Source: a virus
Taxonomy: Duplodnaviria; Caudoviricetes
DNA: 64,000 bases
IMG/VR virus record: IMGVR_UViG_3300025679_000005
Direction: 5' to 3' (one strand)
In this document: piece by piece, positions 8,463 through 62,806 of the stretch
How the letters are laid out: each line of letters begins with the position of its first letter
Position numbering within the stretch: the stretch's first letter is position 1
Notes under the pieces: model-generated
Databases searched by the model: none
What the model was told of the DNA's origin: nothing
The model's input: only the letters and a program-made list of their open reading frames with translations
Program-made: the position numbers and the translations under genes

Positions 8463-9650
8463 TCAACCCCATCCCTAAAGGGCGGAGTTTTGCAGATCAA
8501 GTCCATGGCTCACAACCACTTCAACCCTGTCCGCGTTTGGCCTGATTACGGTGGCCCGGCTAGCAATTACGCTAGCCGCGTTGGCGTCGGCATCCGCGCT
8601 GTGCCCACATGCAAGACAAGCAAACAGATCGCGAGTCTTACGGTTGGCCTTCTCGATATGACCGCAAACGCGGCATTCCCGGGAAGTATTGCGAGGATCG
8701 ACAAAACAGACAGCAACCCCAGCACGCTTGGCTTTGTACCCGATCTTGCTTTGCAAGTCAGCGAAGGCCCAAGAGTGCAGAGAGCGTCGTTGCGACCTGG
8801 AAGCTCGGATCCGGGAGCGGATGCCATCGAGGTTTTCGATGGCTATACCGCGTCCGGTGCGTTCGGCAGCATCGACAATCTGTTTAGAAATAACATGATT
8901 CACATGCGAAGAAAATCGGGATTCTTTGCGACGACGCTTCTTGAGCAGCCGTTTAGCGCTTTTGGTGCCTTTCGTTTGGAGCTTTTTGCGCAACCGGAAT
9001 GCCCGTCCGCGGAGTGCATTAAGGTGTGTTCCGCTGAAATTCTGGCCGTCGCTAGTGGTAGCAATATTCACGATGCCAACGTCTACCCCGAGCCAGCCAA
9101 GCGTCTTATGCTCTTCGGTGTCAGGCACATCGACAGTGACAAACAGGTAGAATTTTCGGTCACGAAGGATGAGATCGGTTTCGCCACGCTCGTACTTGAG
9201 CAAGGCTCGCTGGTGGGTGCCACAAACGAACGGGATACGTTGACGGCCGTTGACTGTCCAGATATTGGTGGAATCTCCCCGCCACGACAGGATCCTAGCA
9301 TCGTACGAGATGGCCCCCAGCGGCCGGAACGTTCGACGACAGATTTTGTCGAGTTTGTAGGAGTCAGCGACCTTGGCGATGCATCGCACGACTACCTGCG
9401 AGGACATTCCTGGAAATTCAGAGCGAGCGTCGTGATAAGCGAGCTTATGGAGGGCGAATTGCCGGAAGATCTGTCCTTCCCAGGCGCGGTCGGAAATCCA
9501 GTTGCAAGCAGCATTAGCTCGACGGATCGTAGCCTCAAGCGCAGCAAATTGCTCAGCCGTCGGCTTGAGCTGAACTTGCACCACGAGCTTCATTTCACAA
9601 TGCTAGCAGTTTCTATACTTGAAGCAAGCCAAGCCGTAACAAGTCTGCGC
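8460..9650 (-). mobile_element. TnpB-only IS200/IS605 (IS1341-like) element; boundaries approximate
   Basis: tnpB with no tnpA; right-end-like hairpin CTCCGCCCTTTAGGGATGGGG immediately after the gene on the minus strand; codon style differs from flanking genes. Confidence 0.7.
8475..9593 (-). CDS. tnpB: RNA-guided endonuclease TnpB (IS200/IS605 family)
   Basis: N-terminal LKPTAEQ helix, RuvC-I LGVDVG, RuvC-II IAIENL, zinc finger CRVC...CLAC, RuvC-III ADANAA. Confidence 0.92.
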   Translation of the reverse strand: MKLVVQVQLKPTAEQFAALEATIRRANAACNWISDRAWEGQIFRQFALHKLAYHDARSEFPGMSSQVVVRCIAKVADSYKLDKICRRTFRPLGAISYDARILSWRGDSTNIWTVNGRQRIPFVCGTHQRALLKYERGETDLILRDRKFYLFVTVDVPDTEEHKTLGWLGVDVGIVNIATTSDGQNFSGTHLNALRGRAFRLRKKLQTKGTKSAKRLLKKRRRKESRFSSHVNHVISKQIVDAAERTGRGIAIENLDGIRSRIRASRSQRRSLHSWAFADLQSKIGYKAKRAGVAVCFVDPRNTSRECRVCGHIEKANRKTRDLFACLACGHSADADANAASVIASRATVIRPNADRVEVVVSHGLDLQNSAL

Positions 9651-19783: not shown

Positions 19784-20632
19784 TCATGCCCTGGGTAAAA
19801 GCGACCACGTTTGAGGATTTTCGAGCTGGTGTGAGATCTGAGCGATGTCGGAAAGGCCCGCTAGGTAATCCACCTTCTCGTAGTCGATAGTGCGCTGAAC
19901 CAGAGGACTCAGGGATTCTTGGAAAGGGGTCATGATCGGTACTTTGAGACCGTGGACGAAGTCGTTGAAGGCGGCGTCATGCCAGGGTGGGGACCAGGCA
20001 CTTGACCGACAGATATACACCATCTCGACATTGCCCGCGTATTCCGACACCTTGGGATCAGGCCATACACACGGCTCTGTGTACCGCCTCAGGGAAGCAT
20101 CCAGTTCAGGGAAGCCCCCGTCTCCAAAGCTCCTAGTCCAATCGGCCATCCCCTTCCACGGGGGAAACACGATCAAAGACTTGAGCTGAAGCTGCGTCAG
20201 ATGGGTCATGAGCAGCCAGTTCTCACAGGTGACGTTGCCTCGAAGGGCGTCCCGCTCGAACTGGGCCATGTTGTAGGTCAGGTCGTGGTGAGCGTCAAAG
20301 TTCACCAGCCGGGTGTCAGCTAAGGACGGGCCCTCACAATTCGAACGGGAAAACACCTTGTTCCCGTGCTGATGACTGTCCCCTACAATTACCTCACAGA
20401 GATCATCGAACCGATAGCCCAGACCTCGAAGGGTTTTCCAGAAGTCTCGTGGGTGGGGGTCGTCTAACTTGGCTGACTCTTTGAGGTCGAGCCCCTGTGC
20501 TTTAGCTAAGGCCAGACGAACTTCCCATACAGAGCCGTAGTAGGTTTCAGTTTCTGCGTGAGCCCATTTCCACTCTTCTCGTTCAATAGCGAAGTAGTCC
20601 CAATCTATTGTTAGCCAGATATTTTTTCGCAC
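19784..20632 (-). CDS. UPF0489-like/arginase-fold metal-binding protein (probable start GTG 20632)
   Basis: LTIDWDYF, DSH, NFDAHHD, CENW, ICRSSAWSPPWHD; AAGGAAG upstream of the GTG; the longer ORF call runs through CRISPR repeats. Confidence 0.55.
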   Translation of the reverse strand: MRKNIWLTIDWDYFAIEREEWKWAHAETETYYGSVWEVRLALAKAQGLDLKESAKLDDPHPRDFWKTLRGLGYRFDDLCEVIVGDSHQHGNKVFSRSNCEGPSLADTRLVNFDAHHDLTYNMAQFERDALRGNVTCENWLLMTHLTQLQLKSLIVFPPWKGMADWTRSFGDGGFPELDASLRRYTEPCVWPDPKVSEYAGNVEMVYICRSSAWSPPWHDAAFNDFVHGLKVPIMTPFQESLSPLVQRTIDYEKVDYLAGLSDIAQISHQLENPQTWSLLPRA

Positions 20633-20652: not shown

Positions 20653-20843
20653 GTGACCACTTGAAAGGGTTTCGTCTCCCTCTCTGACCCTTTTTGGGTC
20701 CGATTTTGATGGTCATTGGTTCTTACCTGGTGACCACTTGAAAGGGTTTCGTCTCCCTCTCTGACCTGTAAAAACGGGCGGCGTCACCAACACCCAGGTA
20801 TCGGTGGTGACCACTTGAAAGGGTTTCGTCTCCCTCTCTGACC
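20653..20843 (-). CRISPR. Mini CRISPR array: 3 identical 37-nt repeats and 2 unrelated 40-nt spacers
   Basis: Plus-strand repeat GTGACCACTTGAAAGGGTTTCGTCTCCCTCTCTGACC at 20653-20689, 20730-20766 and 20807-20843; spacers at 20690-20729 and 20767-20806; orientation inferred from the effector gene and leader. Confidence 0.9.
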
Positions 20844-21030
20844 TTACCCCTAGGCACCTCAAGCATTTCGCGACCTTGCACAATGCTTTGCGAGAGGTCG
20901 CGAAATCGACCCTTTTTGAGGGAGGGCGATTTGGCAATAAACGCCTGGCTCCATCAACGATGGAGCCTAATTTGGCTGTTGCGAGAGCCTGCTGGCTTTT
21001 TGGCGCCACCGAACCTCTCGCAACGAGGAA
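20844..21030 (-). promoter_or_regulatory. CRISPR leader-like region with several inverted repeats
   Basis: TTTCGCGACCT/AGGTCGCGAAA (11 bp), GGCTCCATC/GATGGAGCC (9 bp), GTTGCGAGAG/CTCTCGCAAC (10 bp). Confidence 0.5.
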
Positions 21031-21034
21031 GACG

Positions 21035-21150
21035 AATTGTCAGAGAACAGAGTGAGAGAAGAAACCCTCTTAAGTGTGGTGGACTCAACCACCAAAGTTG
21101 GGAATACGTAGGTACTCTCACGAGCCCCACTCAGCTAACTTTCGTTAGCT
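21035..21150 (-). ncRNA. Putative tracrRNA/omegaRNA-derived scaffold with anti-repeat; ends uncertain
   Basis: 21039-21076 is complementary (minus strand) to the repeat in blocks of 8/8, 4/5, 8/8 and 6/8 nt; GAAA-tetraloop hairpin at 21133-21150 over the effector stop codon. Confidence 0.65.
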
Positions 21151-23084
21151 GTCGTCCCTAGAGGAGCCACCGACACTGCGCCGCTATCGACACAGCCTTC
21201 CGGTTTGCCTTGCTTACGCTTGGCGCTCTTCCTATTGTGCTCAGGAGCTTTCGCTACTGAGTTTTGGGTCTGCTCTGCCCGAGCAGACCTTTCGGCCCAC
21301 GCTGTTTGGCGTATGGCCAGAAATTCTGGATTGTCAAAGTCCCGGAGATTCATAGCTGCGTTCGCATCTCGATGATTCTCTGGGAGGTGCCCCCTACGAG
21401 GCTCTCGAACGGATCCTACACCGAAGCCGCAGCTCTGGCATCGGAAATATTCGTTAGAACCCAACTTCCTGTTGAGGACCCCGCAGGCATGGCATTGCTG
21501 AGATGTGTATTGAGGCTCCTTGGCGTGGACTACCGCTCCTGCCCAGGTCGCCTTGTAGGTCAATTGCTGGCGAATTGCATAAGGTCCGATCTTGGCCCAC
21601 ATTTTGGCAAAGACCCGTCGCATGCGCTTGGATGCGTTCGAGCCAAGGTCTTGCTTCGCCATCATACCCTTGATGTCCAAGTCCTCGACATGGTAGGTGC
21701 TTGCGCCCTGATCAATCAGGCGTCGAGTGACCTGATGGCGTAGATCCCCCAACAGGTCCGTGATCTTGGAGTCAATGCGTCGGACTTGGCTCTCAACATC
21801 AAGGTAGCCGTTGGAGGGCTTTTGACGGATCGCTTTGCCTTTGGGGTCTAGGCGCACGCTGCCTTGATTGACGAGGACGATACCGTTCTTGTTCGCGGCT
21901 TCGACTGCGACTCGACCTTGTCTTCTGGAGAGTCTCCTCTGGAGGACAGCTTTTTTGCGTTCGAGCTTCTCGACCGTCTTCATAGCCTTCAGGTAGAATT
22001 CCTGAGCATAAATCTTGGCATTGGAGTCAACGACAAATGTCCGTTTGCCCAGGTCGATGCCTAAGGTCTCGCCAGTGCGAGGTTTTGGGTCCGGGGCATC
22101 GATCTCGACTGTCAGAGACAGGTACCAATGAGTCCCTCGTTTTTGGACGGCGACCTGAGTGTGGTTGACGTGATGAACCCCAATAGGGAAATACTTTGGA
22201 CGAGCCAATAGGATCCACTCGTGACCTTTTCCAAAGAACTTGCCAGCTCCTTGGATTTTGATCCGATCTCCCTGTATGGTAACTGTCGTAGACACTCGGA
22301 CAGCACCAGCCTCCGTCGTATAGGCTTCCTCTGGAATTATTGGGAAAGCCGTCACCTTCCCCAATTCCTTGAATGTTGGCTGATTCATCCGGAATTTAGG
22401 AGGGCTCTTCCCAGCCGCCTTGAACTTAGGGTACCCACTAGCTGGAACTCCTGGGGGCGGCTTTACCATGCGATCAAAAGCAAAGTCCACATCCGCGAGT
22501 GCCTCACGACTTACATAGGCAGTAGCTTGGTCCTTCAGGGGCGTTTTGCCGTACAGTGCTTGGGCATTCCTAGGGAATTTGACTATGGGGTCTTCGGCCC
22601 CAGGCTCCCATGCGTCTAGACCTAGGACTCGTGATGCCTGAGGTTGTAACTCCGAAAGATGCGATTCGAGCCATCGAATCGCATTGTTTGGGTTCACACC
22701 CTTGTACTTGTCACCGATCTTTAGGGAACCTTCGATACTGGGGGTTAGAAGGACATCCCCTAGCGGGCCGGAGAACTTCCAACCGCTAGCTTTCTGGCCC
22801 TCTTCTCGGAATTTCTCGTGCGTGTACCCAAGAGCTGTGAACAGAGCTTCGACATCGTAAATGGTTTGAGGGCGCTTGGCCTTTAGCTCTTTTGCGGACA
22901 GGTCCACCCACCCTCGGCGTAGTCCCAGTAGGTAGAGCTGCACCTTGTATGCCTTGTACTCCGCTGTCCTTACTGCGACACCGTGGTTATACGTTCGTCG
23001 AGTGACCCTGCACCAACGAGACAGTTCTTGTTCTTGCCTTGCTGTAGGGTAGATTCGACTTACGTAAGCTTTGTGGATCCTCAT
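21135..23084 (-). CDS. CRISPR-associated enlarged TnpB/Cas12-like (type V) RuvC nuclease, 649 aa
   Basis: TnpB-type N-terminus (YVSRIYPTARQE...RRTYN), RuvC-I LGIDLG, RuvC-II HVEDL, zinc finger CHAC...CQSC, RuvC-III RDANAAMNL; long insertion in the N-terminal lobe; adjacent to anti-repeat and array. Confidence 0.85.
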   Translation of the reverse strand: MRIHKAYVSRIYPTARQEQELSRWCRVTRRTYNHGVAVRTAEYKAYKVQLYLLGLRRGWVDLSAKELKAKRPQTIYDVEALFTALGYTHEKFREEGQKASGWKFSGPLGDVLLTPSIEGSLKIGDKYKGVNPNNAIRWLESHLSELQPQASRVLGLDAWEPGAEDPIVKFPRNAQALYGKTPLKDQATAYVSREALADVDFAFDRMVKPPPGVPASGYPKFKAAGKSPPKFRMNQPTFKELGKVTAFPIIPEEAYTTEAGAVRVSTTVTIQGDRIKIQGAGKFFGKGHEWILLARPKYFPIGVHHVNHTQVAVQKRGTHWYLSLTVEIDAPDPKPRTGETLGIDLGKRTFVVDSNAKIYAQEFYLKAMKTVEKLERKKAVLQRRLSRRQGRVAVEAANKNGIVLVNQGSVRLDPKGKAIRQKPSNGYLDVESQVRRIDSKITDLLGDLRHQVTRRLIDQGASTYHVEDLDIKGMMAKQDLGSNASKRMRRVFAKMWAKIGPYAIRQQLTYKATWAGAVVHAKEPQYTSQQCHACGVLNRKLGSNEYFRCQSCGFGVGSVREPRRGHLPENHRDANAAMNLRDFDNPEFLAIRQTAWAERSARAEQTQNSVAKAPEHNRKSAKRKQGKPEGCVDSGAVSVAPLGTTANES

Positions 23085-24136: not shown

Positions 24137-24378
24137 CTACAGGTCGAAGTCTGACAGGCGTTCCCAAAATGACTTTGAGCCATAGGGATCTCTATCTTGT
24201 TTTTTACGGCAGGCCTGACAGATAGCGCCCGCTACCCTACCGGCTCTGCCAATCTCACTGCACCTAATCGCACAAGGGATCTTCTTCGAGATCGTAATCA
24301 ATTCCGATACAGTCAATGAATTGGGGTCTAGGGTCCTCTCAGTCAGATACCTAGTAACCCATTCCTCTGCTGTCATCG
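24137..24378 (-). CDS. Small hypothetical protein (probable start MTAEEW; start approximate)
   Basis: ATG just after the repeat tract; C-terminal SFWERL motif. Confidence 0.45.
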
Positions 24379-24642
24379 CCGGCTCCGGCTCCCGCTCACG
24401 CTCCGGCTCCCGCTCACGCTCCAGCTCACGCTCCGGCTCACGCTCCGGCTCCGGCTCCCGCTCACGCTCCAGCTCCGGCTCCGGCTCCGGCTCCGGCTCC
24501 CGCTCCGGCTCCAGTTCCAGCTCCAGTTCCCGCTCCGGCTCCCGCTCCGGCTCCCGCTCACGCTCACGCTCCAGCTCCGGCTCCGGCTCCGGCTCCCGCT
24601 CCCGCTCACCAGGTATGCCTCGAACATTAAACAAGGGTTCAT
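24373..24642 (-). CDS. Ser/Gly/Arg low-complexity protein
   Basis: Start overlaps the stop of 24639-24977; stop sits near the next ATG. Confidence 0.45.
   Translation of the reverse strand: MNPCLMFEAYLVSGSGSRSRSRSWSVSVSGSRSGSRSGNWSWNWSRSGSRSRSRSRSWSVSGSRSRSVSRSVSWSVSGSRSVSGSRSRR
24380..24607. repeat. Degenerate hexanucleotide tandem repeat (GGCTCC/CGCTCA/AGCTCC units)
   Basis: About 230 nt of 6-mer units; encodes an SGSRS- or EPERE-type tract depending on frame. Confidence 0.9.
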
Positions 24643-24977
24643 ATCTGCTCCCTAGGCAATTCATGAGGCCATTTCACATGATCCAAAAATGTGCTCCGAT
24701 TGAGGGTTACTTTCACCCCATCTGGGAATGGCTCGACTTCATCGAAGACCCCTGTTTTAAGCAGGTCTGCGAAGCGGCCGTCAGAAGCAATCCAAGCGGC
24801 CTCGTCCAACTCTAACTCTTCTTCGGACACTGCTGTCACTCTACCTGTATAGTGTGCTGTGATAGTTCTAACGAAGATTTTCGTCCCAATTTCAATTGGT
24901 AGTCGACGTGAGGTGTTCATCCCAAATAGTAGGGCTATCTCGCGCAATTGTTCTAAAGTCAGATTTTGAATTTCCAT
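24639..24977 (-). CDS. Phage-type hypothetical protein
   Basis: VRTITAHYTGRV...AAWIASDGRF...EVEPFP; GGTGTA 9 nt upstream. Confidence 0.65.
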   Translation of the reverse strand: MEIQNLTLEQLREIALLFGMNTSRRLPIEIGTKIFVRTITAHYTGRVTAVSEEELELDEAAWIASDGRFADLLKTGVFDEVEPFPDGVKVTLNRSTFLDHVKWPHELPREQI

Positions 24978-36746: not shown

Positions 36747-38084
36747 ATGACCGAACATTGGGCTGAAGATCTCCAGGCAACGCAGAACGCTCCCGACAAG
36801 CCGGCTCTAACCGATGAGTACAAGGCTGTCGACAAGAACCTGTGGGACATAGTGATGCAGGTTGCCAAGGGGGAACGCCACGACTTTACAAGAGGCGGGC
36901 CAAACGGGGATCGAACCATCAACGCTCCAAATGAAGGTCAGGGGTTCCGTAAGTGGCCCAGTCAGAAGGCAGTGGCATGGGCCATAAAGCAGTACAAGGG
37001 GTTCGGTGGGCAGTGGAAGGGTGACGACGAGAAGAATGCTTCGGAAGACAATGAGTCCTTCGTACAAGCTGTAGCTCTGAGGTATGCGAGCGCAGATGTG
37101 TCACACACTGAGGCAATGCGCCACTACCAACGCAGCGTCCTCGACTTCATGCGGACGGGGTCGTTGATCACAACTGCAACAGGCACAGACGATCACTACT
37201 GGATGCTAGACCTCAGAGACCAAGCCCTGGTCAATCAGGTCCACGCAGCTGAAGGCAGTCACGTCTGGGACATCACTGCCAAGGGTGTTCGTGTGTTCGT
37301 CGCCGGTCTTGAACAGGACCTCGTGCACAAGATGGAACACCTGATCAACACCGAGCCCTACGATGGCAATGAAGCCAAGAAGATCGGTGAGTGGTTTGAA
37401 GCCAACTTCCGTTTCAAGTCTCCGAAGACTCCCAAAGGCCAGAAGGAACTCAAGACAAATTGTGAGCATCTCCATTGGGCTCTAGCGTACGGCAGCACGA
37501 TGTACGCGGGCAGACCGGACGCTTACAAGAGCAATGTCGAGAACCATTGGACATATGTCAAGCTCCACATTGGAGACCTAGTCAAGTACTTCTCTGATGA
37601 GGGCGGGAGGGTAGTCCCCAACGAGCTGAAGATTGGTGCCAATACCTATCTCAACAAGGCAGGACTCGACGAGAAGACGTTGGAGAAATACGCCCATCGA
37701 CTCAACACCGTGATTGAATCCCTTCGAGGATGGCGAGCCAAAGCCCTCAAGGGTGGTGTAAAAGTTATGCTTGTCAGCCCCAGAGACTTGGCGACTGGTG
37801 GCAAGTACAAGACTTCAGAGGACACCTTGATGGTTCGAGCTACGCCGGTCATTTTGAAGCGGGACGCGGGAACGTACGCCAGCTTTGATTATATCGTAGT
37901 CCACGAGCTAGGCCATCGATACGAACATAAGAATTCAGTGCCACAAGACTTCGATAAACCAGAATGGTGGACCTCGAAATACAGCTCCAAGGAGGGCGAA
38001 TCCTTTGCTGAGCTTTTCGCTATTGGTGCCTATAATTTGTCCGGACCTTGGGATCAGCTATTTTGGACCGTTTCGAAAAGATAA
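36747..38084 (+). CDS. Putative zincin metallopeptidase-domain protein
   Basis: VHELGH and SKYS...ESFAELF, the same motif pair as 16786-18435. Confidence 0.6.
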   Translation: MTEHWAEDLQATQNAPDKPALTDEYKAVDKNLWDIVMQVAKGERHDFTRGGPNGDRTINAPNEGQGFRKWPSQKAVAWAIKQYKGFGGQWKGDDEKNASEDNESFVQAVALRYASADVSHTEAMRHYQRSVLDFMRTGSLITTATGTDDHYWMLDLRDQALVNQVHAAEGSHVWDITAKGVRVFVAGLEQDLVHKMEHLINTEPYDGNEAKKIGEWFEANFRFKSPKTPKGQKELKTNCEHLHWALAYGSTMYAGRPDAYKSNVENHWTYVKLHIGDLVKYFSDEGGRVVPNELKIGANTYLNKAGLDEKTLEKYAHRLNTVIESLRGWRAKALKGGVKVMLVSPRDLATGGKYKTSEDTLMVRATPVILKRDAGTYASFDYIVVHELGHRYEHKNSVPQDFDKPEWWTSKYSSKEGESFAELFAIGAYNLSGPWDQLFWTVSKR

Positions 38085-38088
38085 TGGC

Positions 38089-39144
38089 ATGATCCGCTCT
38101 TACCGCTATCCACTGCACCCGCTGAAGGACCAGGAAGTGATCCTGGTCTCCTGGATTGAGAGCTGCCGCCAGCTTTTCAATGGGGCATTGGAAGAGCGGA
38201 AGAGCCACTACTGGAAGTTCAATCGTGGGCTAACTCATTATGAGCAACAGAAGTCGCTGACTATTCTTAGATCTCAGGATTTGGAGTGGAAAGCGATTCC
38301 GGTCATGATTCTTAGATCTGCCCTTAAGCGCTTGGATCATGCCTACAATATGTTTTTCAGGCGAGTGAAGTCTGGAGAAGCCCCAGGCTTTCCACGCTTC
38401 CGGGGTCGTCATCGGTACGACTCTTTCTCGCTGGCGGCATACTTCAAAGTGAGTGAGAAAACCAAAGGGCATTCAGCTACAGTCTCAATCCCGAAGCTTG
38501 GTCCGGTCAAATTCAATCAGTACCGTCCTCACAAGGGTGTGATCAAAGACATCATCGTCAAGCGAGAGGCTGACAGATGGTTTGTGATCTTCCAGTGCGA
38601 TTTGGGAGTAGCCCCTGAGGTCGTGATCGACCCCACGAAGTCCGTCGGCATTGACCTAGGACTCACCCACTTCGGTACCCTTGATGACGGAACAACGATC
38701 GAGAACCCTCGATACTTCCGAGCTGGCCAAGACCTCCTTGCCAAGCGCCAACGCGCCCTGCAACGCAAGCGCCGTGGCAGCCGCTCTCGTCAACGAGCCA
38801 AGATCTTGGTTCAGCGGGCTCACACCCACATCAAGAATCAACGCCTAGATCATGCCAGAAAGCTGGCTAAGTCACTCTTTGAATCGAATGACATTGTCTG
38901 CTACGAGGACCTCTCGATTGCGACAATGATCGAGGGCTCCTACCTAGCGAAATCAATCTCGGACGCTTCCTGGTCAATCACCATTCACTGCCTAAAATGC
39001 AAAGCGGAAGAAGCTGGCAAACTCGCAGTGGCTGTAGACCCAAGAGGGACCACACAGAGGTGTAGTGGGTGCGGAACCGTCGTCCCAAAGGGACTCCGGG
39101 ACCGCGTTCATGACTGCCCAGAGTGTGGCCTCGTCATGGGCTAA
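38089..39144 (+). pseudogene. tnpB: C-terminally truncated TnpB (IS200/IS605 family)
   Basis: YRYPLHP helix, RuvC-I VGIDLG, RuvC-II YEDL, zinc finger CSGC...CPEC; stops at GLVMG before the RuvC-III DxNAA motif. Confidence 0.8.
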
Positions 39145-39184
39145 ACCCTATTGGGCACTACGTAGCAAAGGTAATGGCGTAAAT

Positions 39185-39781
39185 ATGTCAATGATCGGGC
39201 TCAAAATACCTCAAGAGACTGCTGGGATCTTGAGTGAGATCAAGCTGCCAGGTGAGCCTGCGACCGATCTGCACATTACGATCCTTCACCTGGGAGACGC
39301 ACTCCCTATTGGTACTGTCTCCAAGGCTGTCGAAGTTGCCTATGACGTGGTTCAGAAAATACGCCCGTTCACAGTGCTGACCACCAAGGTTATCTGTTTC
39401 CCAGAGGGTAGTAACGGCGTTCCCGTGGTTTGTGAAATAGAGTCGGAGGCCCTTCACGAGCTGTGGGCCAAACTATGCGAGGCCTTTGATGATGCCGGCC
39501 TGGAATACAGCAAAAAGTTCCCGGTATTTCGCCCGCATGTGACCCTAAGTTGGGCTGAAGCCCCGATCAAGCCTATCAAGTTCTCGCCTATCGAATGGGG
39601 CGCTCACGAGCTAACTATCTGGGGTGGGGACTCCGGAGAACGCAAGGTGATGGTGTCGATCCCCATTGCCCCTTTTGGGCGGGCGGCCTCCTCCAAGAGG
39701 GTGGCTTTCGGCTTGAAACTGACCTCGCCCGAGCGAGTGGCCTTGAAGTTCCAGTTGACCCAGGCAGGGATCTGGGAATGA
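39185..39781 (+). CDS. 2H phosphoesterase (LigT/ThpR, 2'-5' RNA ligase family)
   Basis: Two HxT motifs: DLHITI and RPHVTL. Confidence 0.85.
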   Translation: MSMIGLKIPQETAGILSEIKLPGEPATDLHITILHLGDALPIGTVSKAVEVAYDVVQKIRPFTVLTTKVICFPEGSNGVPVVCEIESEALHELWAKLCEAFDDAGLEYSKKFPVFRPHVTLSWAEAPIKPIKFSPIEWGAHELTIWGGDSGERKVMVSIPIAPFGRAASSKRVAFGLKLTSPERVALKFQLTQAGIWE

Positions 39782-54576: not shown

Positions 54577-56007
54577 CTAAGCCTGACCCATTGCTGGGTC
54601 TTCGGCGTTTAAGGCTGTGCCAGCATTCCCTGGGGAATTAACTCTGGTAGTAAGCCTACGGCTAGAAGCTGCTAGCACGGTAGCCGACCTTCCTGAGGAA
54701 CTGACCCCGGCCCGAAGGTCTAGGTATCGCTCTCTCAGGATGGTTTTCACTTCGGACGGGGAGTCATCGAGAAGAATGAGGTTGTCCTCAGAACGTCTGA
54801 GCAAATTCTTCCCTCCTACCACATCCGCATGAGAAATCTTACCGCATCCGCGGCATTTGAATTTAGTGCCTGATCGATTACCTCTGTGAACGTAACCACA
54901 AGAAGGACATTCTTGAGAAGAGTAGGCCGGGTTGACAACAATGATCGGTGCCTTGGTCTTCAAGGAGTTGTGAAGAGCCCTGTAAGCGAACCGCTTTTGT
55001 CCACGGCATCCACTGAGATCTAGGTCCTCAATGACGAATGCGTGCCCTGGGTAATCCCGGACAAGTGAGTTGGCAACGAATCCAGTACTGGATTTGATCA
55101 ATCCGCTGAGGCGCTCTTCCAACCGATCCAGACGAGGGGAGTTGAGGCGAAGTCCTTGGCGCTGCCTATTTCCTCGAAGGGTTTTGACCTTGGCATAAAG
55201 GGTATCGAACTTGGGCTTCAGATCAGCTCCGTAAAGCTTGCCGGTCGACGTGGCAGCTATCACGTTGAGACCCACATCCACACCTACCCTTGGGGATGTC
55301 AGGTCAAGCTTAGGGTCCTCGATCAGCTTCCGCTCAAGGACTTCGACACGCCATCGCCCACGTCGATCCTTCCGGATCATACATCCATTGACGATTTCGG
55401 ACGGATCCTTGATGTGAGGGTTGGCTACGATTGGAACCCATAGGCGATGACTCTTCCGTAGATGGGAGATGCCTAGCCACCAAGTAGTCAAGTCCACTTC
55501 AGGAACCACGCGGATGTCACTTGTGTGGATTGACATCCGCATCCCCACTCGATTGGAGATCGTTGGGGTCCTGCCCACTAGGCTCTCGTCAAGAAGGAAC
55601 GACCAGTACTGATCAATGGCTTCTTGGGGAATGGTTTCGCTTGGGCGGTCGACTCCGTACTTGCCGACGGTGAAGAGGGCGATCTGGGTAGCTTCAGTGA
55701 TCTCGCCTTCTTTAGCCAAGTTCTTGATGTGACGTTTGAGCTTCCTGGTGTAAAGGCTAGTAGTCCAACCTGAAACGATTTCAGCGGCGTGCTGCTGACA
55801 AGCCATTACAATGTTGGTGGAAAGTACCTTTTCCTTGGGGAAGAACCGGAGAAGTTCTTTCCTCGAAACGCTCATCCTCATGGATGAGATCATGACCTCG
55901 ACGCAGGCCTGTAGGTACCGAAGGTACTCTACATGAAGGGCTTCGAGAGCACGGATCTTCCCCTCATTGACTTTAGGGTGGAAGTAGAGGGCCCGTGAGC
56001 GTTTCAC
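54577..56007 (-). CDS. tnpB: TnpB-family RNA-guided endonuclease, divergent N-terminus (probable GTG start 56007, ~476 aa)
   Basis: RuvC-I VGVDVG, RuvC-II VIEDL, zinc finger CPSC...CRGC, RuvC-III HADVVG. Confidence 0.82.
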   Translation of the reverse strand: MKRSRALYFHPKVNEGKIRALEALHVEYLRYLQACVEVMISSMRMSVSRKELLRFFPKEKVLSTNIVMACQQHAAEIVSGWTTSLYTRKLKRHIKNLAKEGEITEATQIALFTVGKYGVDRPSETIPQEAIDQYWSFLLDESLVGRTPTISNRVGMRMSIHTSDIRVVPEVDLTTWWLGISHLRKSHRLWVPIVANPHIKDPSEIVNGCMIRKDRRGRWRVEVLERKLIEDPKLDLTSPRVGVDVGLNVIAATSTGKLYGADLKPKFDTLYAKVKTLRGNRQRQGLRLNSPRLDRLEERLSGLIKSSTGFVANSLVRDYPGHAFVIEDLDLSGCRGQKRFAYRALHNSLKTKAPIIVVNPAYSSQECPSCGYVHRGNRSGTKFKCRGCGKISHADVVGGKNLLRRSEDNLILLDDSPSEVKTILRERYLDLRAGVSSSGRSATVLAASSRRLTTRVNSPGNAGTALNAEDPAMGQA

Positions 56008-56091
56008 ACTTAGTGTGGTCGATAAAGGGATTATCGGTGTATAAGCCCACCATGACAGCGCTGCCTTCTTTTTCGGCAGCAAAAGGAACCA

Positions 56092-60645: not shown

Positions 60646-60950
60646 TGAACCCTTACATGGCAATTGCTCTATTGATCTTCGTTGTGTTGGTAGCCTGGCC
60701 GACCAACATGACTCGAGGCGACTCGGTGGTTGGCTCCCTCTTTCTGGCCGTAATCTGGCCCACCCTCTTGATCGTATCAGGCTACCTTTTCATCAAGAAG
60801 TACGTGTTCAAGCGATCCGGACTCAGCGGATCTGAAGTCGGCTCTGAGCTTGAGATTCTAGGGGCTCTGGTAATGACCGGCGGATTACTGTCTCTGAGCT
60901 TAGTCTACCCGCACAACCCCGTCGTAGCTTTCCTAACGAGGCCCTTCTGA
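60645..60950 (+). CDS. Small membrane protein
   Basis: TGATG overlaps on both sides; three hydrophobic segments. Confidence 0.55.
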   Translation: MNPYMAIALLIFVVLVAWPTNMTRGDSVVGSLFLAVIWPTLLIVSGYLFIKKYVFKRSGLSGSEVGSELEILGALVMTGGLLSLSLVYPHNPVVAFLTRPF

Positions 60951-62806
60951 TGGCCCCTTTTGCTTACGATCTCAAGAACGTCCTAGTCTCGATCGACAAC
61001 ATCTCGCTCAAATTCGACGACAAGGTCATCCTCAAGCCGATCACGATGCAGGTCAGGGACATCGTCAGAACAGGGGTCTGCCAGGGACAGGTCATCGGAA
61101 TCCTGGGCCCAAGCGGGATTGGCAAGTGCTTAGCCAAGGGCACCTCGGTACTCATGTTCGACGGCACTCTAAAAAAAGTCGAAGATGTTCGCATTGGGGA
61201 CGCTCTAATGGGACCTGACTCAAAGCCTAGGAACGTGCTAGACTTAGGCCATGGTTACGACCACAACATGTATAGGATTCAACCCACAAAGGGGGAATCC
61301 TTCACTGTCAACTCTCCACACATTCTCGCGCTACACTTGGGTAAAAGCAAGAGAAGCAAAGCCAAGTATGTAGAAGTGTCGGTGGCCGACTACCTGGGAA
61401 AGAGCCGTACCTTCAAGGCCAGGACCCGCCTGTATCGCGTGGGTATAGACTTCCCAGAACAAGAAGTCCCTGTTGATCCTTATTTTTTTGGCCTGTGGCT
61501 AGGAGATGGAAGTTCTGACAGCACTGCCATTACTAATCAGGACCCAGAAGTCTTTGAAGCCGTTGAAGCGTTCGCGCTAGCCGTAGGGGCTGAGTCTCAC
61601 AGGGTTGACCCGAAAAACAGGTGCTCACGGATCTCGGTTCACAACAATTACAGTAAGAAGCCTGGGACTGTACTCAAAGCATTAAGACTGACAGGTGCCT
61701 TGAACAACAAGCATGTCCCTTTGAAGTACAAGGCTAACAGTCGTGATGTGCGCCTTCAACTGTTAGCTGGAATCATCGATAGCGATGGGGGTATCGCTGG
61801 TGCCAATTGTTACGAGGTGTCTTCCAAGCACAAGCATCTGGCAGACGACTACTGCTATATAGCTAGGTCCTTAGGCCTTGCCGCTTACTGCAAGTCAGCC
61901 TTCAAGAAATGCCAAACTGGCAAGGGTGGTATCTACCATCGCGTTACTATTTCCGGACATGTGGACGAGATCCCTGTAAGGATTGCCCGTAAAATCGCGA
62001 AGCCTCGTAAGCAGATCAAGGATGTATTGCGAACAGGCTTTACTGTCCACAACGAGTGGTATGGGGAGTATTTTGGATTTGAACTGGACGGTGATGGATT
62101 GTTTCTATTGAGCGACTTCACTGTAACTCACAATACACAATTCAGCAGGATCCTCGCAGGTCTTCAAAAACCGACCACAGGCGCGGTCACTGTCGAAGTG
62201 GACCTTCCAGGTGGCGGGGTCGCCCAAAAGACCGTAGGAGCCGGCCTCGTGGGCATGGTGGCCCAAGACTACCCTCTGTTCAAACACAGGACAATCGAGG
62301 GCAACCTCCTAGTAGCCCTCGAGCATACCAAAGCCTCGAAGAAGGACCGCCTGCTCAAAGTCTACGAGTACCTGAACAGGTTTGGCCTAGCCGACAAGGC
62401 TCGTCTCTACCCTGCTCAGCTCTCAGGTGGCCAAAAGCAGCGGGTGAGCATCATCCAAGAGCTTCTTTCCTCCGAGCACTTCCTGATCATGGACGAGCCT
62501 TTCACTGGGCTTGACCCGATCAACAAGGACTTGGCTTGTGAACTCATCCTTCAGGTCTCGCACCTGGACGAAAAGAACACCCTGTTCATCGTCGCCCACG
62601 ACATTGCATCCCTCGTGACCGTATCCGACCAGCTCTGGCTCTTTGGCCGAGACAGGGACGCAGCGGGTAACCCCGTCCCAGGCGCTTACATCAAAAAGCA
62701 GTACAACCTGGTGGACCTGGGGTTTGCCTGGCATGAGGGGATCAGCGCTACCCGCGAGTTCTCCGAGTTCTGCAACGCCGTCAAAGAAGAATTCCGATTC
62801 CTGTGA
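60950..62806 (+). CDS. ABC transporter ATP-binding protein interrupted by an intein
   Basis: Walker A GPSGIGK|T split by the intein; signature LSGGQKQR; Walker B IMDEPF; switch VAHD. Confidence 0.9.
   Translation: MAPFAYDLKNVLVSIDNISLKFDDKVILKPITMQVRDIVRTGVCQGQVIGILGPSGIGKCLAKGTSVLMFDGTLKKVEDVRIGDALMGPDSKPRNVLDLGHGYDHNMYRIQPTKGESFTVNSPHILALHLGKSKRSKAKYVEVSVADYLGKSRTFKARTRLYRVGIDFPEQEVPVDPYFFGLWLGDGSSDSTAITNQDPEVFEAVEAFALAVGAESHRVDPKNRCSRISVHNNYSKKPGTVLKALRLTGALNNKHVPLKYKANSRDVRLQLLAGIIDSDGGIAGANCYEVSSKHKHLADDYCYIARSLGLAAYCKSAFKKCQTGKGGIYHRVTISGHVDEIPVRIARKIAKPRKQIKDVLRTGFTVHNEWYGEYFGFELDGDGLFLLSDFTVTHNTQFSRILAGLQKPTTGAVTVEVDLPGGGVAQKTVGAGLVGMVAQDYPLFKHRTIEGNLLVALEHTKASKKDRLLKVYEYLNRFGLADKARLYPAQLSGGQKQRVSIIQELLSSEHFLIMDEPFTGLDPINKDLACELILQVSHLDEKNTLFIVAHDIASLVTVSDQLWLFGRDRDAAGNPVPGAYIKKQYNLVDLGFAWHEGISATREFSEFCNAVKEEFRFL
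61127..62134 (+). mobile_element. Intein with LAGLIDADG homing endonuclease (336 aa)
   Basis: Begins CLAKGT and ends VTHN followed by Thr; internal GLWLGDG and LAGIIDSDG. Confidence 0.92.

Follow-up and report, generated by a model that had tools for sequence, protein, structure and literature searches.

The 64,000-nt stretch of Caudoviricetes DNA analysed here (IMG/VR record IMGVR_UViG_3300025679_000005; hereafter the window) encodes on its minus strand, between positions 20653 and 23084, a 649-aa TnpB-like RuvC nuclease next to a short series of repeats, and the question raised by this locus is whether the TnpB relative serves as the effector of a CRISPR system or remains part of a mobile element. 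The locus very probably represents a stand-alone type V CRISPR-Cas locus of the trans-activating CRISPR RNA (tracrRNA) type, devoid of adaptation genes and carried by a huge phage. Demonstrated from the sequence are an anatomy laid out on one strand, a complete RuvC triad with a zinc finger, a conserved linkage between gene and array, and anti-repeats that co-vary with the repeats. The minus-strand order described in the first-pass annotation (nuclease gene, structured RNA with an anti-repeat, leader, three 37-nt repeats with two 40-nt spacers) was found again at the same coordinates, 20653-23084, and comprises the following features:

21135-23084, minus strand: effector gene, 649 codons for 649 aa, a TnpB-derived RuvC nuclease by domains and fold
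21078-21134, minus strand: segment of structured RNA immediately 5' to the anti-repeat, with hairpins over about 57 nt, including GGTGGTTGAGTCCACC at 21078-21093
21038-21077, minus strand: anti-repeat, 40 nt, complementary to nearly the whole 37-nt repeat
20844-21037, minus strand: leader, 194 nt, holding the conserved helix module
21012-21023, minus strand: 5' strand of the helix, TTGCGAGAGGTT, in the leader
20979-20987, minus strand: third copy of CTCTCGCAA, in the leader
20888-20899, minus strand: 3' strand of the helix, AACCTCTCGCAA, about 51 nt before repeat 1
20653-20843, minus strand: mini-array of three repeats and two spacers
20807-20843, minus strand: repeat R1, 37 nt
20767-20806, minus strand: spacer S1, 40 nt
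20730-20766, minus strand: repeat R2, 37 nt
20690-20729, minus strand: spacer S2, 40 nt
20653-20689, minus strand: repeat R3, 37 nt
19784-20632, minus strand: next gene, 282 aa, GTG start at 20632 preceded by AAGGAAG as ribosome-binding site

The 37-nt core GGTCAGAGAGGGAGACGAAACCCTTTCAAGTGGTCAC is the same in R1, R2 and R3 and recurs with a period of 77 nt, while S1 and S2 are unrelated to each other and each unique within the 64-kb window. The 3' end of the repeat, GTCAC, is also found in the repeats of relatives.

The effector (649 aa, with a core of about 590) matched the Pfam families HTH_OrfB_IS605 (residues 1-46), OrfB_IS605 and Cas12f1-like_TNB. Its RuvC triad is complete, with D344 in GIDLG (22053-22055), E467 in VEDL (21684-21686) and D573 in RDANAA (21366-21368), and a CxxC..CxxC zinc finger is formed by C531, C534, C549 and C552 (DNA 21429-21494). 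The three acidic motifs and the C4 finger pointed out at first pass were thus both recovered, and both proved to be conserved: in an alignment of 10 family sequences, D344, E467 and D573 are invariant and the finger cysteines invariant or nearly so. Such a split C-terminal RuvC (D..E..D) with a zinc-finger/TNB insert is the arrangement that marks type V effectors. A confident AlphaFold2 model built from 150 homologues (pLDDT 83.6; pTM 0.79) was disordered only at residues 99-127, 242-250, 403-407 and in the tail 621-649. Its closest structural neighbours (VIA-align) were the ISDra2 and ISFba1 TnpBs (Z 19.6; 23-26% identity over 326-367 residues), followed by Fanzor2 (Z 16.2), Cas12f (Z ~16), Cas12p (Z 15.3) and RdCas12n (Z 15.1, N-terminal half only, 17% identity), and then by LaTranC (Z 12.7), CasLambda and CasPhi (Z 12.4), all at Z 12-13. 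The family profile ranked the PDB sequences in the same way (TnpB, 115-119 bits; RdCas12n, 83; LaTranC, 58; Cas12f, at most 48). Among the NCBIfam models, guided_TnpB reached 175 bits and all Cas12 models stayed far below their cut-offs (Cas12f2, 39 bits against a cut-off of 450); a word-indexed homology search with the 649-aa protein returned distant TnpBs only.

The window holds three other TnpB-like open reading frames (ORFs), as had been noticed at first pass: 8475-9593 (minus strand), 38005-39144 (plus strand) and 54577-56082 (minus strand), of 372, 379 and 501 aa, respectively, each containing the OrfB_IS605 and TNB domains. Identity to the 649-aa protein does not exceed 34%, over short stretches, and the three are also remote from one another; among the adjoining ORFs sampled, none was a tnpA. 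As the PADLOC models that gave the top match of the 649-aa protein (Cas12u4) and its Cas12f matches scored these three ordinary TnpB ORFs higher than the protein itself, the matches were not accepted as a guide to subtype.

When 1.84 billion representative proteins were scanned exhaustively with HMMER (threshold E<1e-30), only seven close relatives were recovered; the top eight matches were 567-683 aa long, and ordinary TnpBs of about 400 aa came next. Rather than nesting in an ordinary TnpB clade without array-linked homologs, the seven relatives and the window protein formed one clade (SH-aLRT support 97), itself nested in a 20-row clade (support 97) of proteins of 430-650 aa. An array adjoins the gene in five of the seven relatives (six of the eight family lineages when the window is counted), in all four sampled sister lineages (L036/L037, L038, L039 and L040), and in 10 of the 12 sampled lineages overall, window included. 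The arrays of the five relatives are as follows:

L003: array adjoining the gene, 2 repeats
L005: array adjoining the gene, 2 repeats
L006: array adjoining the gene, at least 4 repeats, the contig ending there
L008/L009: array adjoining the gene, 10 repeats
L004: array upstream of the gene, 3 repeats, the contig beginning inside the array

In the sister lineages (L036/L037, L038, L039, L040), the arrays start 4-10 nt past the stop codon. Across loci the repeats are 31-37 nt long and differ in sequence, with a 3' end of GTCAC or TCCAC on the gene strand. An effector-array adjacency conserved in this way, within a clade of support 97, is what is looked for in type V (Cas12 sensu lato) systems. 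In the 10-repeat array of L008, the gene-distal repeats are degenerate and the spacers there are shortened. Such repeats and spacers are the usual mark of the trailer end of an array, and the gene-distal decay fits transcription in the direction of the gene. The same 573-aa protein is encoded in L036 and L037, and the array of L036 (4395-4721) has an extra spacer between spacers 1 and 2 of that of L037 (3205-3456), which indicates that the arrays turn over, a unit having been gained or lost with neither cas1 nor cas2 in view.

The contexts of these loci are phage-like throughout. Terminase and portal genes adjoin L037, which is filed as a viral operational taxonomic unit, the IMG/VR viral genomes L041 and L042 hold the same array as one of the relatives, and many small unannotated ORFs as well as HNH and RNA-ligase genes accompany the loci. 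Not one neighbouring gene is conserved among the family loci compared. A metagenome scan with the family alignment added relatives of 23-36% identity only, and a relaxed 16-mer scan detected short two-copy repeats in L015, L029 and L033 and a family-type array in none of them. The proteins form a rare, CRISPR-linked branch of TnpB relatives, so far on phage-like DNA only among the loci sampled.

The repeat and the anti-repeat of the window are predicted to form a duplex of -41.2 kcal/mol, compared with a mean of -18.5 and a best value of -28.8 kcal/mol for 200 shuffled repeats (0/200 as low). A cognate anti-repeat was present on the gene strand in all six family loci tested (the window and five relatives), again with 0/200 shuffles as low, and the sister lineages L039 and L036 also have one. 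As the repeats differ between loci and yet each is matched by its own anti-repeat, this constitutes strong evidence for a tracrRNA; an anti-repeat that co-varies on the array strand is the hallmark of tracrRNA-dependent type V systems, and the compact effector is probably tracrRNA-dependent. The best 50-nt scan window for the anti-repeat starts at +11 to +115 from the stop codon, except in L006, where it starts at -117, inside the ORF tail. Past the anti-repeat of L004 come a strong hairpin and a T run, suggesting that its tracrRNA is a separate transcript. A local hairpin lies directly 5' of the anti-repeat in six of six family loci, its sequence being unconserved. In the window, the segment 20768-21200, which takes in the last 66 nt of the gene and reaches as far as the end of spacer 1, is predicted to fold much more stably than its shuffles (z = -9.7), with the anti-repeat paired to repeat 1 in the minimum-energy fold. 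The hairpins of 21078-21134 continue back into the 3' end of the ORF and, judging from their predicted fold and position, are the probable body of the tracrRNA. The proposal made at first pass, in which a TnpB-like effector, an anti-repeat RNA and a mini-array make up a compact type V locus on a phage, is supported by the array-linked clade (10/12 lineages) together with these co-varying anti-repeats.

The same comparison bears on a simpler explanation, in which the repeats would be a chance or non-CRISPR tandem feature, for example regulatory sites of the downstream gene, unrelated to the nuclease. The third repeat does end about 20 nt ahead of the start of the next gene, a position that such sites could occupy, but GTCAC-ended arrays with matching anti-repeats recur beside homologues in unrelated neighbourhoods. 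The comparative data already contradict this explanation, which is highly improbable. The 282-aa gene itself (19784-20632) has no family match and is not kept beside the relatives; it lies outside the system and bounds the end of the array. A longer ORF for this gene, reaching into spacer 2, is most likely an artefact, the GTG at 20632 with its AAGGAAG being the likelier start.

The leader separating anti-repeat and repeats holds a conserved, previously unnoticed module. The motif CTCGCA(AA) occurs 50-53 nt upstream of the first repeat in 10/10 array-linked loci with the leader on the contig (10 of 11 loci, L004 being left out as its contig begins inside the array). In seven loci, a complementary (T)GCGAG is found 81-83 nt further upstream, and from this 5' strand it is 175-177 nt to where repeat 1 ends. 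The window and L003 both have an insert, and their spacing between the two strands is 127 and 138 nt, respectively. RNAalifold predicted the GCGAG/CTCGC helix and nothing else. In the helix alignment, paired cells make up 84%, a share that drops to 27-56% once the partner is shifted. AU, CG and UA pairs all occur at the position adjoining the invariant core, and the covariation exceeds that of all but 12/500 shuffles; with nine sequences and a mostly invariant core, the support from covariation is modest. Wherever a significant anti-repeat exists, it ends 2-26 nt before the 5' strand of the helix. The entire module lies within the coding 3' end of the gene in the sister lineages and is non-coding in the lineage of the window, which points to conservation at the nucleic-acid level. 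Counting CTCTCGCAA and its complement together, there are three occurrences in 135 nt of the locus and a single one in the rest of the 64 kb. The module is absent from the array-less L007 and L011.

The module could belong to the scaffold, act as a signal for processing or in the leader, or be a site acting at the DNA level. A sigma-70-like promoter was rejected as the main explanation of the CTCGCAAA element, as no promoter-like site was found and a complementary strand, with some compensatory changes, lies upstream at a fixed distance. Alternatively, the module might be a leader signal common to two unrelated Cas12 types, should CGCTCGCAAAG, which resembles the CTCGCAAAG found here 51 nt before repeat 1, precede CasPhi arrays in this phage. 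Most of the fixed-length loci have another conserved element, ATCAAC-NNN-TTAC, in the helix loop (alignment columns ~45-60; e.g. L005:2530-2545 and L038:5710-5725), which is degenerate in L006, L036, the window and L003. Separately, the array-less L011 (8105-8118; also L012-L014), which encodes P0018, carries CAAGTGGCCAC about 198 nt past the stop codon, identical at 10/11 positions to the 3' end of the window repeat. This solo repeat has neither a significant anti-repeat nor the GCGAG module, and it could be a chance match or the remnant of a lost array.

Taken in order, the anti-repeat, the GCGAG helix, 51 nt and the repeat, of which the part from the helix up to and including repeat 1 measures 175-177 nt, resemble an omegaRNA scaffold. 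A tentative and rather doubtful extension of the type V reading is that these loci are a phage-restricted lineage caught at the split of omegaRNA into tracrRNA and CRISPR RNA (crRNA). Its members would keep a single omegaRNA-like scaffold whose last 36-37 nt became the CRISPR repeat, situated inside the 3' end of the ORF in the sisters, outside the ORF in the window lineage and on a separate tracrRNA transcript in L004; the first spacer would serve in cis, giving a natural single guide, and those after it would act in trans.

The resemblance to an omegaRNA is also what a still-mobile OMEGA element would display, that is, an ordinary TnpB with tandem copies of its omegaRNA 3' segment (an "omegaRNA array"), which guide transposon homing rather than defence or competition. 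The nearest solved relatives of the effector are true TnpBs, the scaffold lies at and past the 3' end of the gene as an omegaRNA does, and the window contains three more TnpB-like genes. Against this, 37-nt repeats alternate with unrelated 40-nt spacers, in up to 10 units in relatives, and the spacers are unlike the flanks. The ATG of the effector overlaps the stop codon of an upstream response-regulator gene by 4 nt, hence there is no space for a left end, and the gene is a single copy in the window. Cas1, Cas2, Cas4 and Y1/serine transposases gave zero Pfam matches within 10 kb on either side or in the further window ORFs sampled, the whole window not being searched exhaustively; the absence of cas1, cas2, cas4 and tnpA stated at first pass for the entire window thus stands for this range. 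Domestication is indicated by the start overlap, which recurs in L003 (where the upstream gene is a NUDIX gene), by the lack of tnpA within 10 kb, by the unconserved neighbours and by the single copy, and continued mobility as an OMEGA element is considered quite improbable.

If the locus is the tracrRNA-type CRISPR-Cas locus proposed here, a tracrRNA ending in the anti-repeat would arise from the gene's 3' end plus the ~100 nt behind it, and a pre-crRNA from the array. Each 37-nt repeat would pair with the anti-repeat, and the duplex would be cut, probably by a host RNase III-type enzyme. The effector would be loaded with a guide that has a 5' handle derived from the repeat and, on its 3' side, ~20-40 nt of spacer, and would then carry out RuvC cleavage of matching double-stranded DNA beside a protospacer-adjacent motif. 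Since the anti-repeat, leader module, repeat 1 and spacer 1 are predicted to be able to fold in cis, they may also form one omegaRNA-like single guide. Competing phages, other mobile elements or host genes would be the likely targets, and new spacers, if any, would need Cas1-Cas2 acting in trans.

Several observations weigh against this interpretation. No RNA sequencing run was found to hold the locus, and one DNA run holds it. No protospacer of the two window spacers was found in the window, IMG/VR or GTDB genomes; in the same collections, the spacers of three relatives had no match outside an array, their sole match being the array itself in two viral genomes. An array of two spacers with no adaptation genes may be static. 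L007 and L011-14 have no array within 6 kb, and no sigma-70-like promoter was found at the locus. Finally, the textbook layout of a Cas12 tracrRNA does not include a 194-nt conserved leader between anti-repeat and repeat.

Some of these points would also suit a locus that is real and either does not cut or is decaying, being an RNA-guided binder or repressor (like Cas12m, Cas12c or TldR) or a relic with a frozen two-spacer array. The array is tiny, adaptation genes are absent and targets were not found, two of the relatives have lost their array, and repression by a phage "dCas14" has been proposed earlier (PMC7162821). Such a state is nonetheless unlikely, as D344, E467 and D573 are invariant, and the finger cysteines invariant or nearly so, in the 10-sequence alignment, and the locus keeps three identical repeats with a near-perfect anti-repeat; together these argue for current selection on a nuclease-competent ribonucleoprotein.

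The element that carries this putative nuclease-competent type V locus is a phage-like contig of 464-466 kb, from peat and other metagenomes. The window includes a terminase-like gene, many homing endonucleases, a D12 methylase, Ku, topoisomerase I and ClpX-like genes, and neither tRNA nor rRNA. An Rfam search returned no family at the gathering score or at E up to 5, similar DNA was absent from the phage GenBank collection, and neither the 649-aa protein nor the window repeat was matched in IMG/VR. Other ORFs of the window deserve mention. A 238-aa ORF (39065-39778, plus strand) has 2'-5' RNA ligase/LigT matches and a match to Acb1 below the cut-off (24.9 bits against 27), and is a possible phosphodiesterase against cyclic-nucleotide defence signalling. 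A 175-aa ORF (24137-24664, minus strand) has an internal tandem repeat of acidic and proline-rich units with a weak PARP-repeat match, the repeat also being seen as a direct DNA repeat at L001:8483-8706. A 618-aa ORF (60950-62806, plus strand) shows an unusual pairing, its N-terminal half resembling terminase large-subunit PHROGs and its C-terminal part ABC-ATPase-like PHROGs.

Overall, the locus provides a well-anatomised case of a TnpB relative turned CRISPR effector on phage genomes. The 12 sampled lineages show three layouts of the guide scaffold (in the ORF, outside the ORF and, apparently, on a separate transcript), a series of natural intermediates on which the published "RNA splitting" account of how type V systems arose can be tested. 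With repeat and anti-repeat defined, a single-guide design can be drawn directly from the sequence.

Among known systems, the TnpBs of OMEGA elements (ISDra2 TnpB, 8exa/8h1j; ISFba1 IS607 TnpB, 8iaz) gave the best structural and sequence matches to the 649-aa effector. They have in common with it the N-terminal HTH_OrfB, the RuvC and the zinc-finger TNB, as well as a guide scaffold encoded at or past the 3' end of the gene. The window effector is, however, about 240 residues longer; its recognition lobe has inserts at ~47-185 and ~235-290, its RuvC has one at ~390-425, and a helix and tail stand at the C-terminus. In contrast to OMEGA TnpBs, the locus has no tnpA (within 10 kb) and no visible ends, is present in one copy in the window, and would draw its guide from a repeat-spacer array and a separate anti-repeat instead of a single omegaRNA; the traits of a mobile IS200/IS605 or IS607 TnpB (tnpA or ends, copies, a single flank-matching omegaRNA) were not found in the window.

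CasPhi (Cas12j) and CasLambda resemble the locus in their carriage by huge phages, single effector, small arrays and lack of cas1/2/4. Neither needs a tracrRNA, and both process their own crRNA. The window locus, in contrast, has a strong anti-repeat, and its effector matches theirs only at Z 12-13 and 11-14% identity (CasPhi, Z 12.4 and 12%), which places it outside Cas12j. Cas12f (Cas14) comprises miniature tracrRNA-dependent type V effectors with downstream arrays and often no adaptation genes, of which phage variants have been reported (PMC7162821, PMC11748809). With Z ~16, 16-17% identity, at most 48 bits by profile and 39 bits against 450 for the Cas12f2 model, the effector was not placed among them.

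Cas12n (V-U4, e.g. RdCas12n, 9j09) is likewise TnpB-proximal, 400-700 aa long and tracrRNA-dependent, and is further marked by a 5'-AAN PAM and by acting as a monomer. Its tracrRNA lies in or beside the coding region of a disordered C-terminal tail (bioRxiv 10.64898/2026.03.27.714800). Residues 621-649 of the window effector are disordered, the anti-repeat of L006 lies inside the ORF tail, and the best PADLOC match of the effector is the Cas12u4 model, which is not diagnostic. Compared with RdCas12n as the one reference, the effector nevertheless scored 83 bits against 115-119 for TnpB, and Z 15.1 against 19.6, and was not assigned to Cas12n. In concept, the locus also resembles TranC, for which, in the work of Jin et al. 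2025 as relayed by PMC13565253, type V is described as having arisen by the splitting of omegaRNA into tracrRNA and crRNA, and the forty further V-U groups catalogued as V-U6 to V-U45 (PMC10691335): TnpB-like proteins with independently gained downstream arrays, mostly without cas1/2/4, with short arrays and 32-38-nt repeats. LaTranC, the sole member of these groups compared, is distant (58 bits, Z 12.7). The cis-folding layout of anti-repeat, module, repeat 1 and spacer 1 fits both the published omegaRNA-split idea and the tail-coded tracrRNA of Cas12n.

By every test run, on sequence and on the predicted model, the effector appears to fall outside Cas12f, Cas12n and Cas12j, with TnpBs as its nearest characterised relatives. 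A 2020 report (PMC7162821) described huge phages whose type V-U and V-F variants lack cas1/2/4, and such variants were described again in glacier-foreland phages (PMC11748809). The kind of system is therefore already known, which weakens the suggestion of an undescribed lineage made at first pass. The present variant is set apart from Cas12f, Cas12n, Cas12j and LaTranC by comparison, and may belong to one of the other V-U6-45 groups or of the many TranC clades catalogued, with which it agrees in concept. Its main value lies in the comparative series of scaffold layouts and in the fixed-distance leader module, rather than in being a compact phage Cas12 as such.

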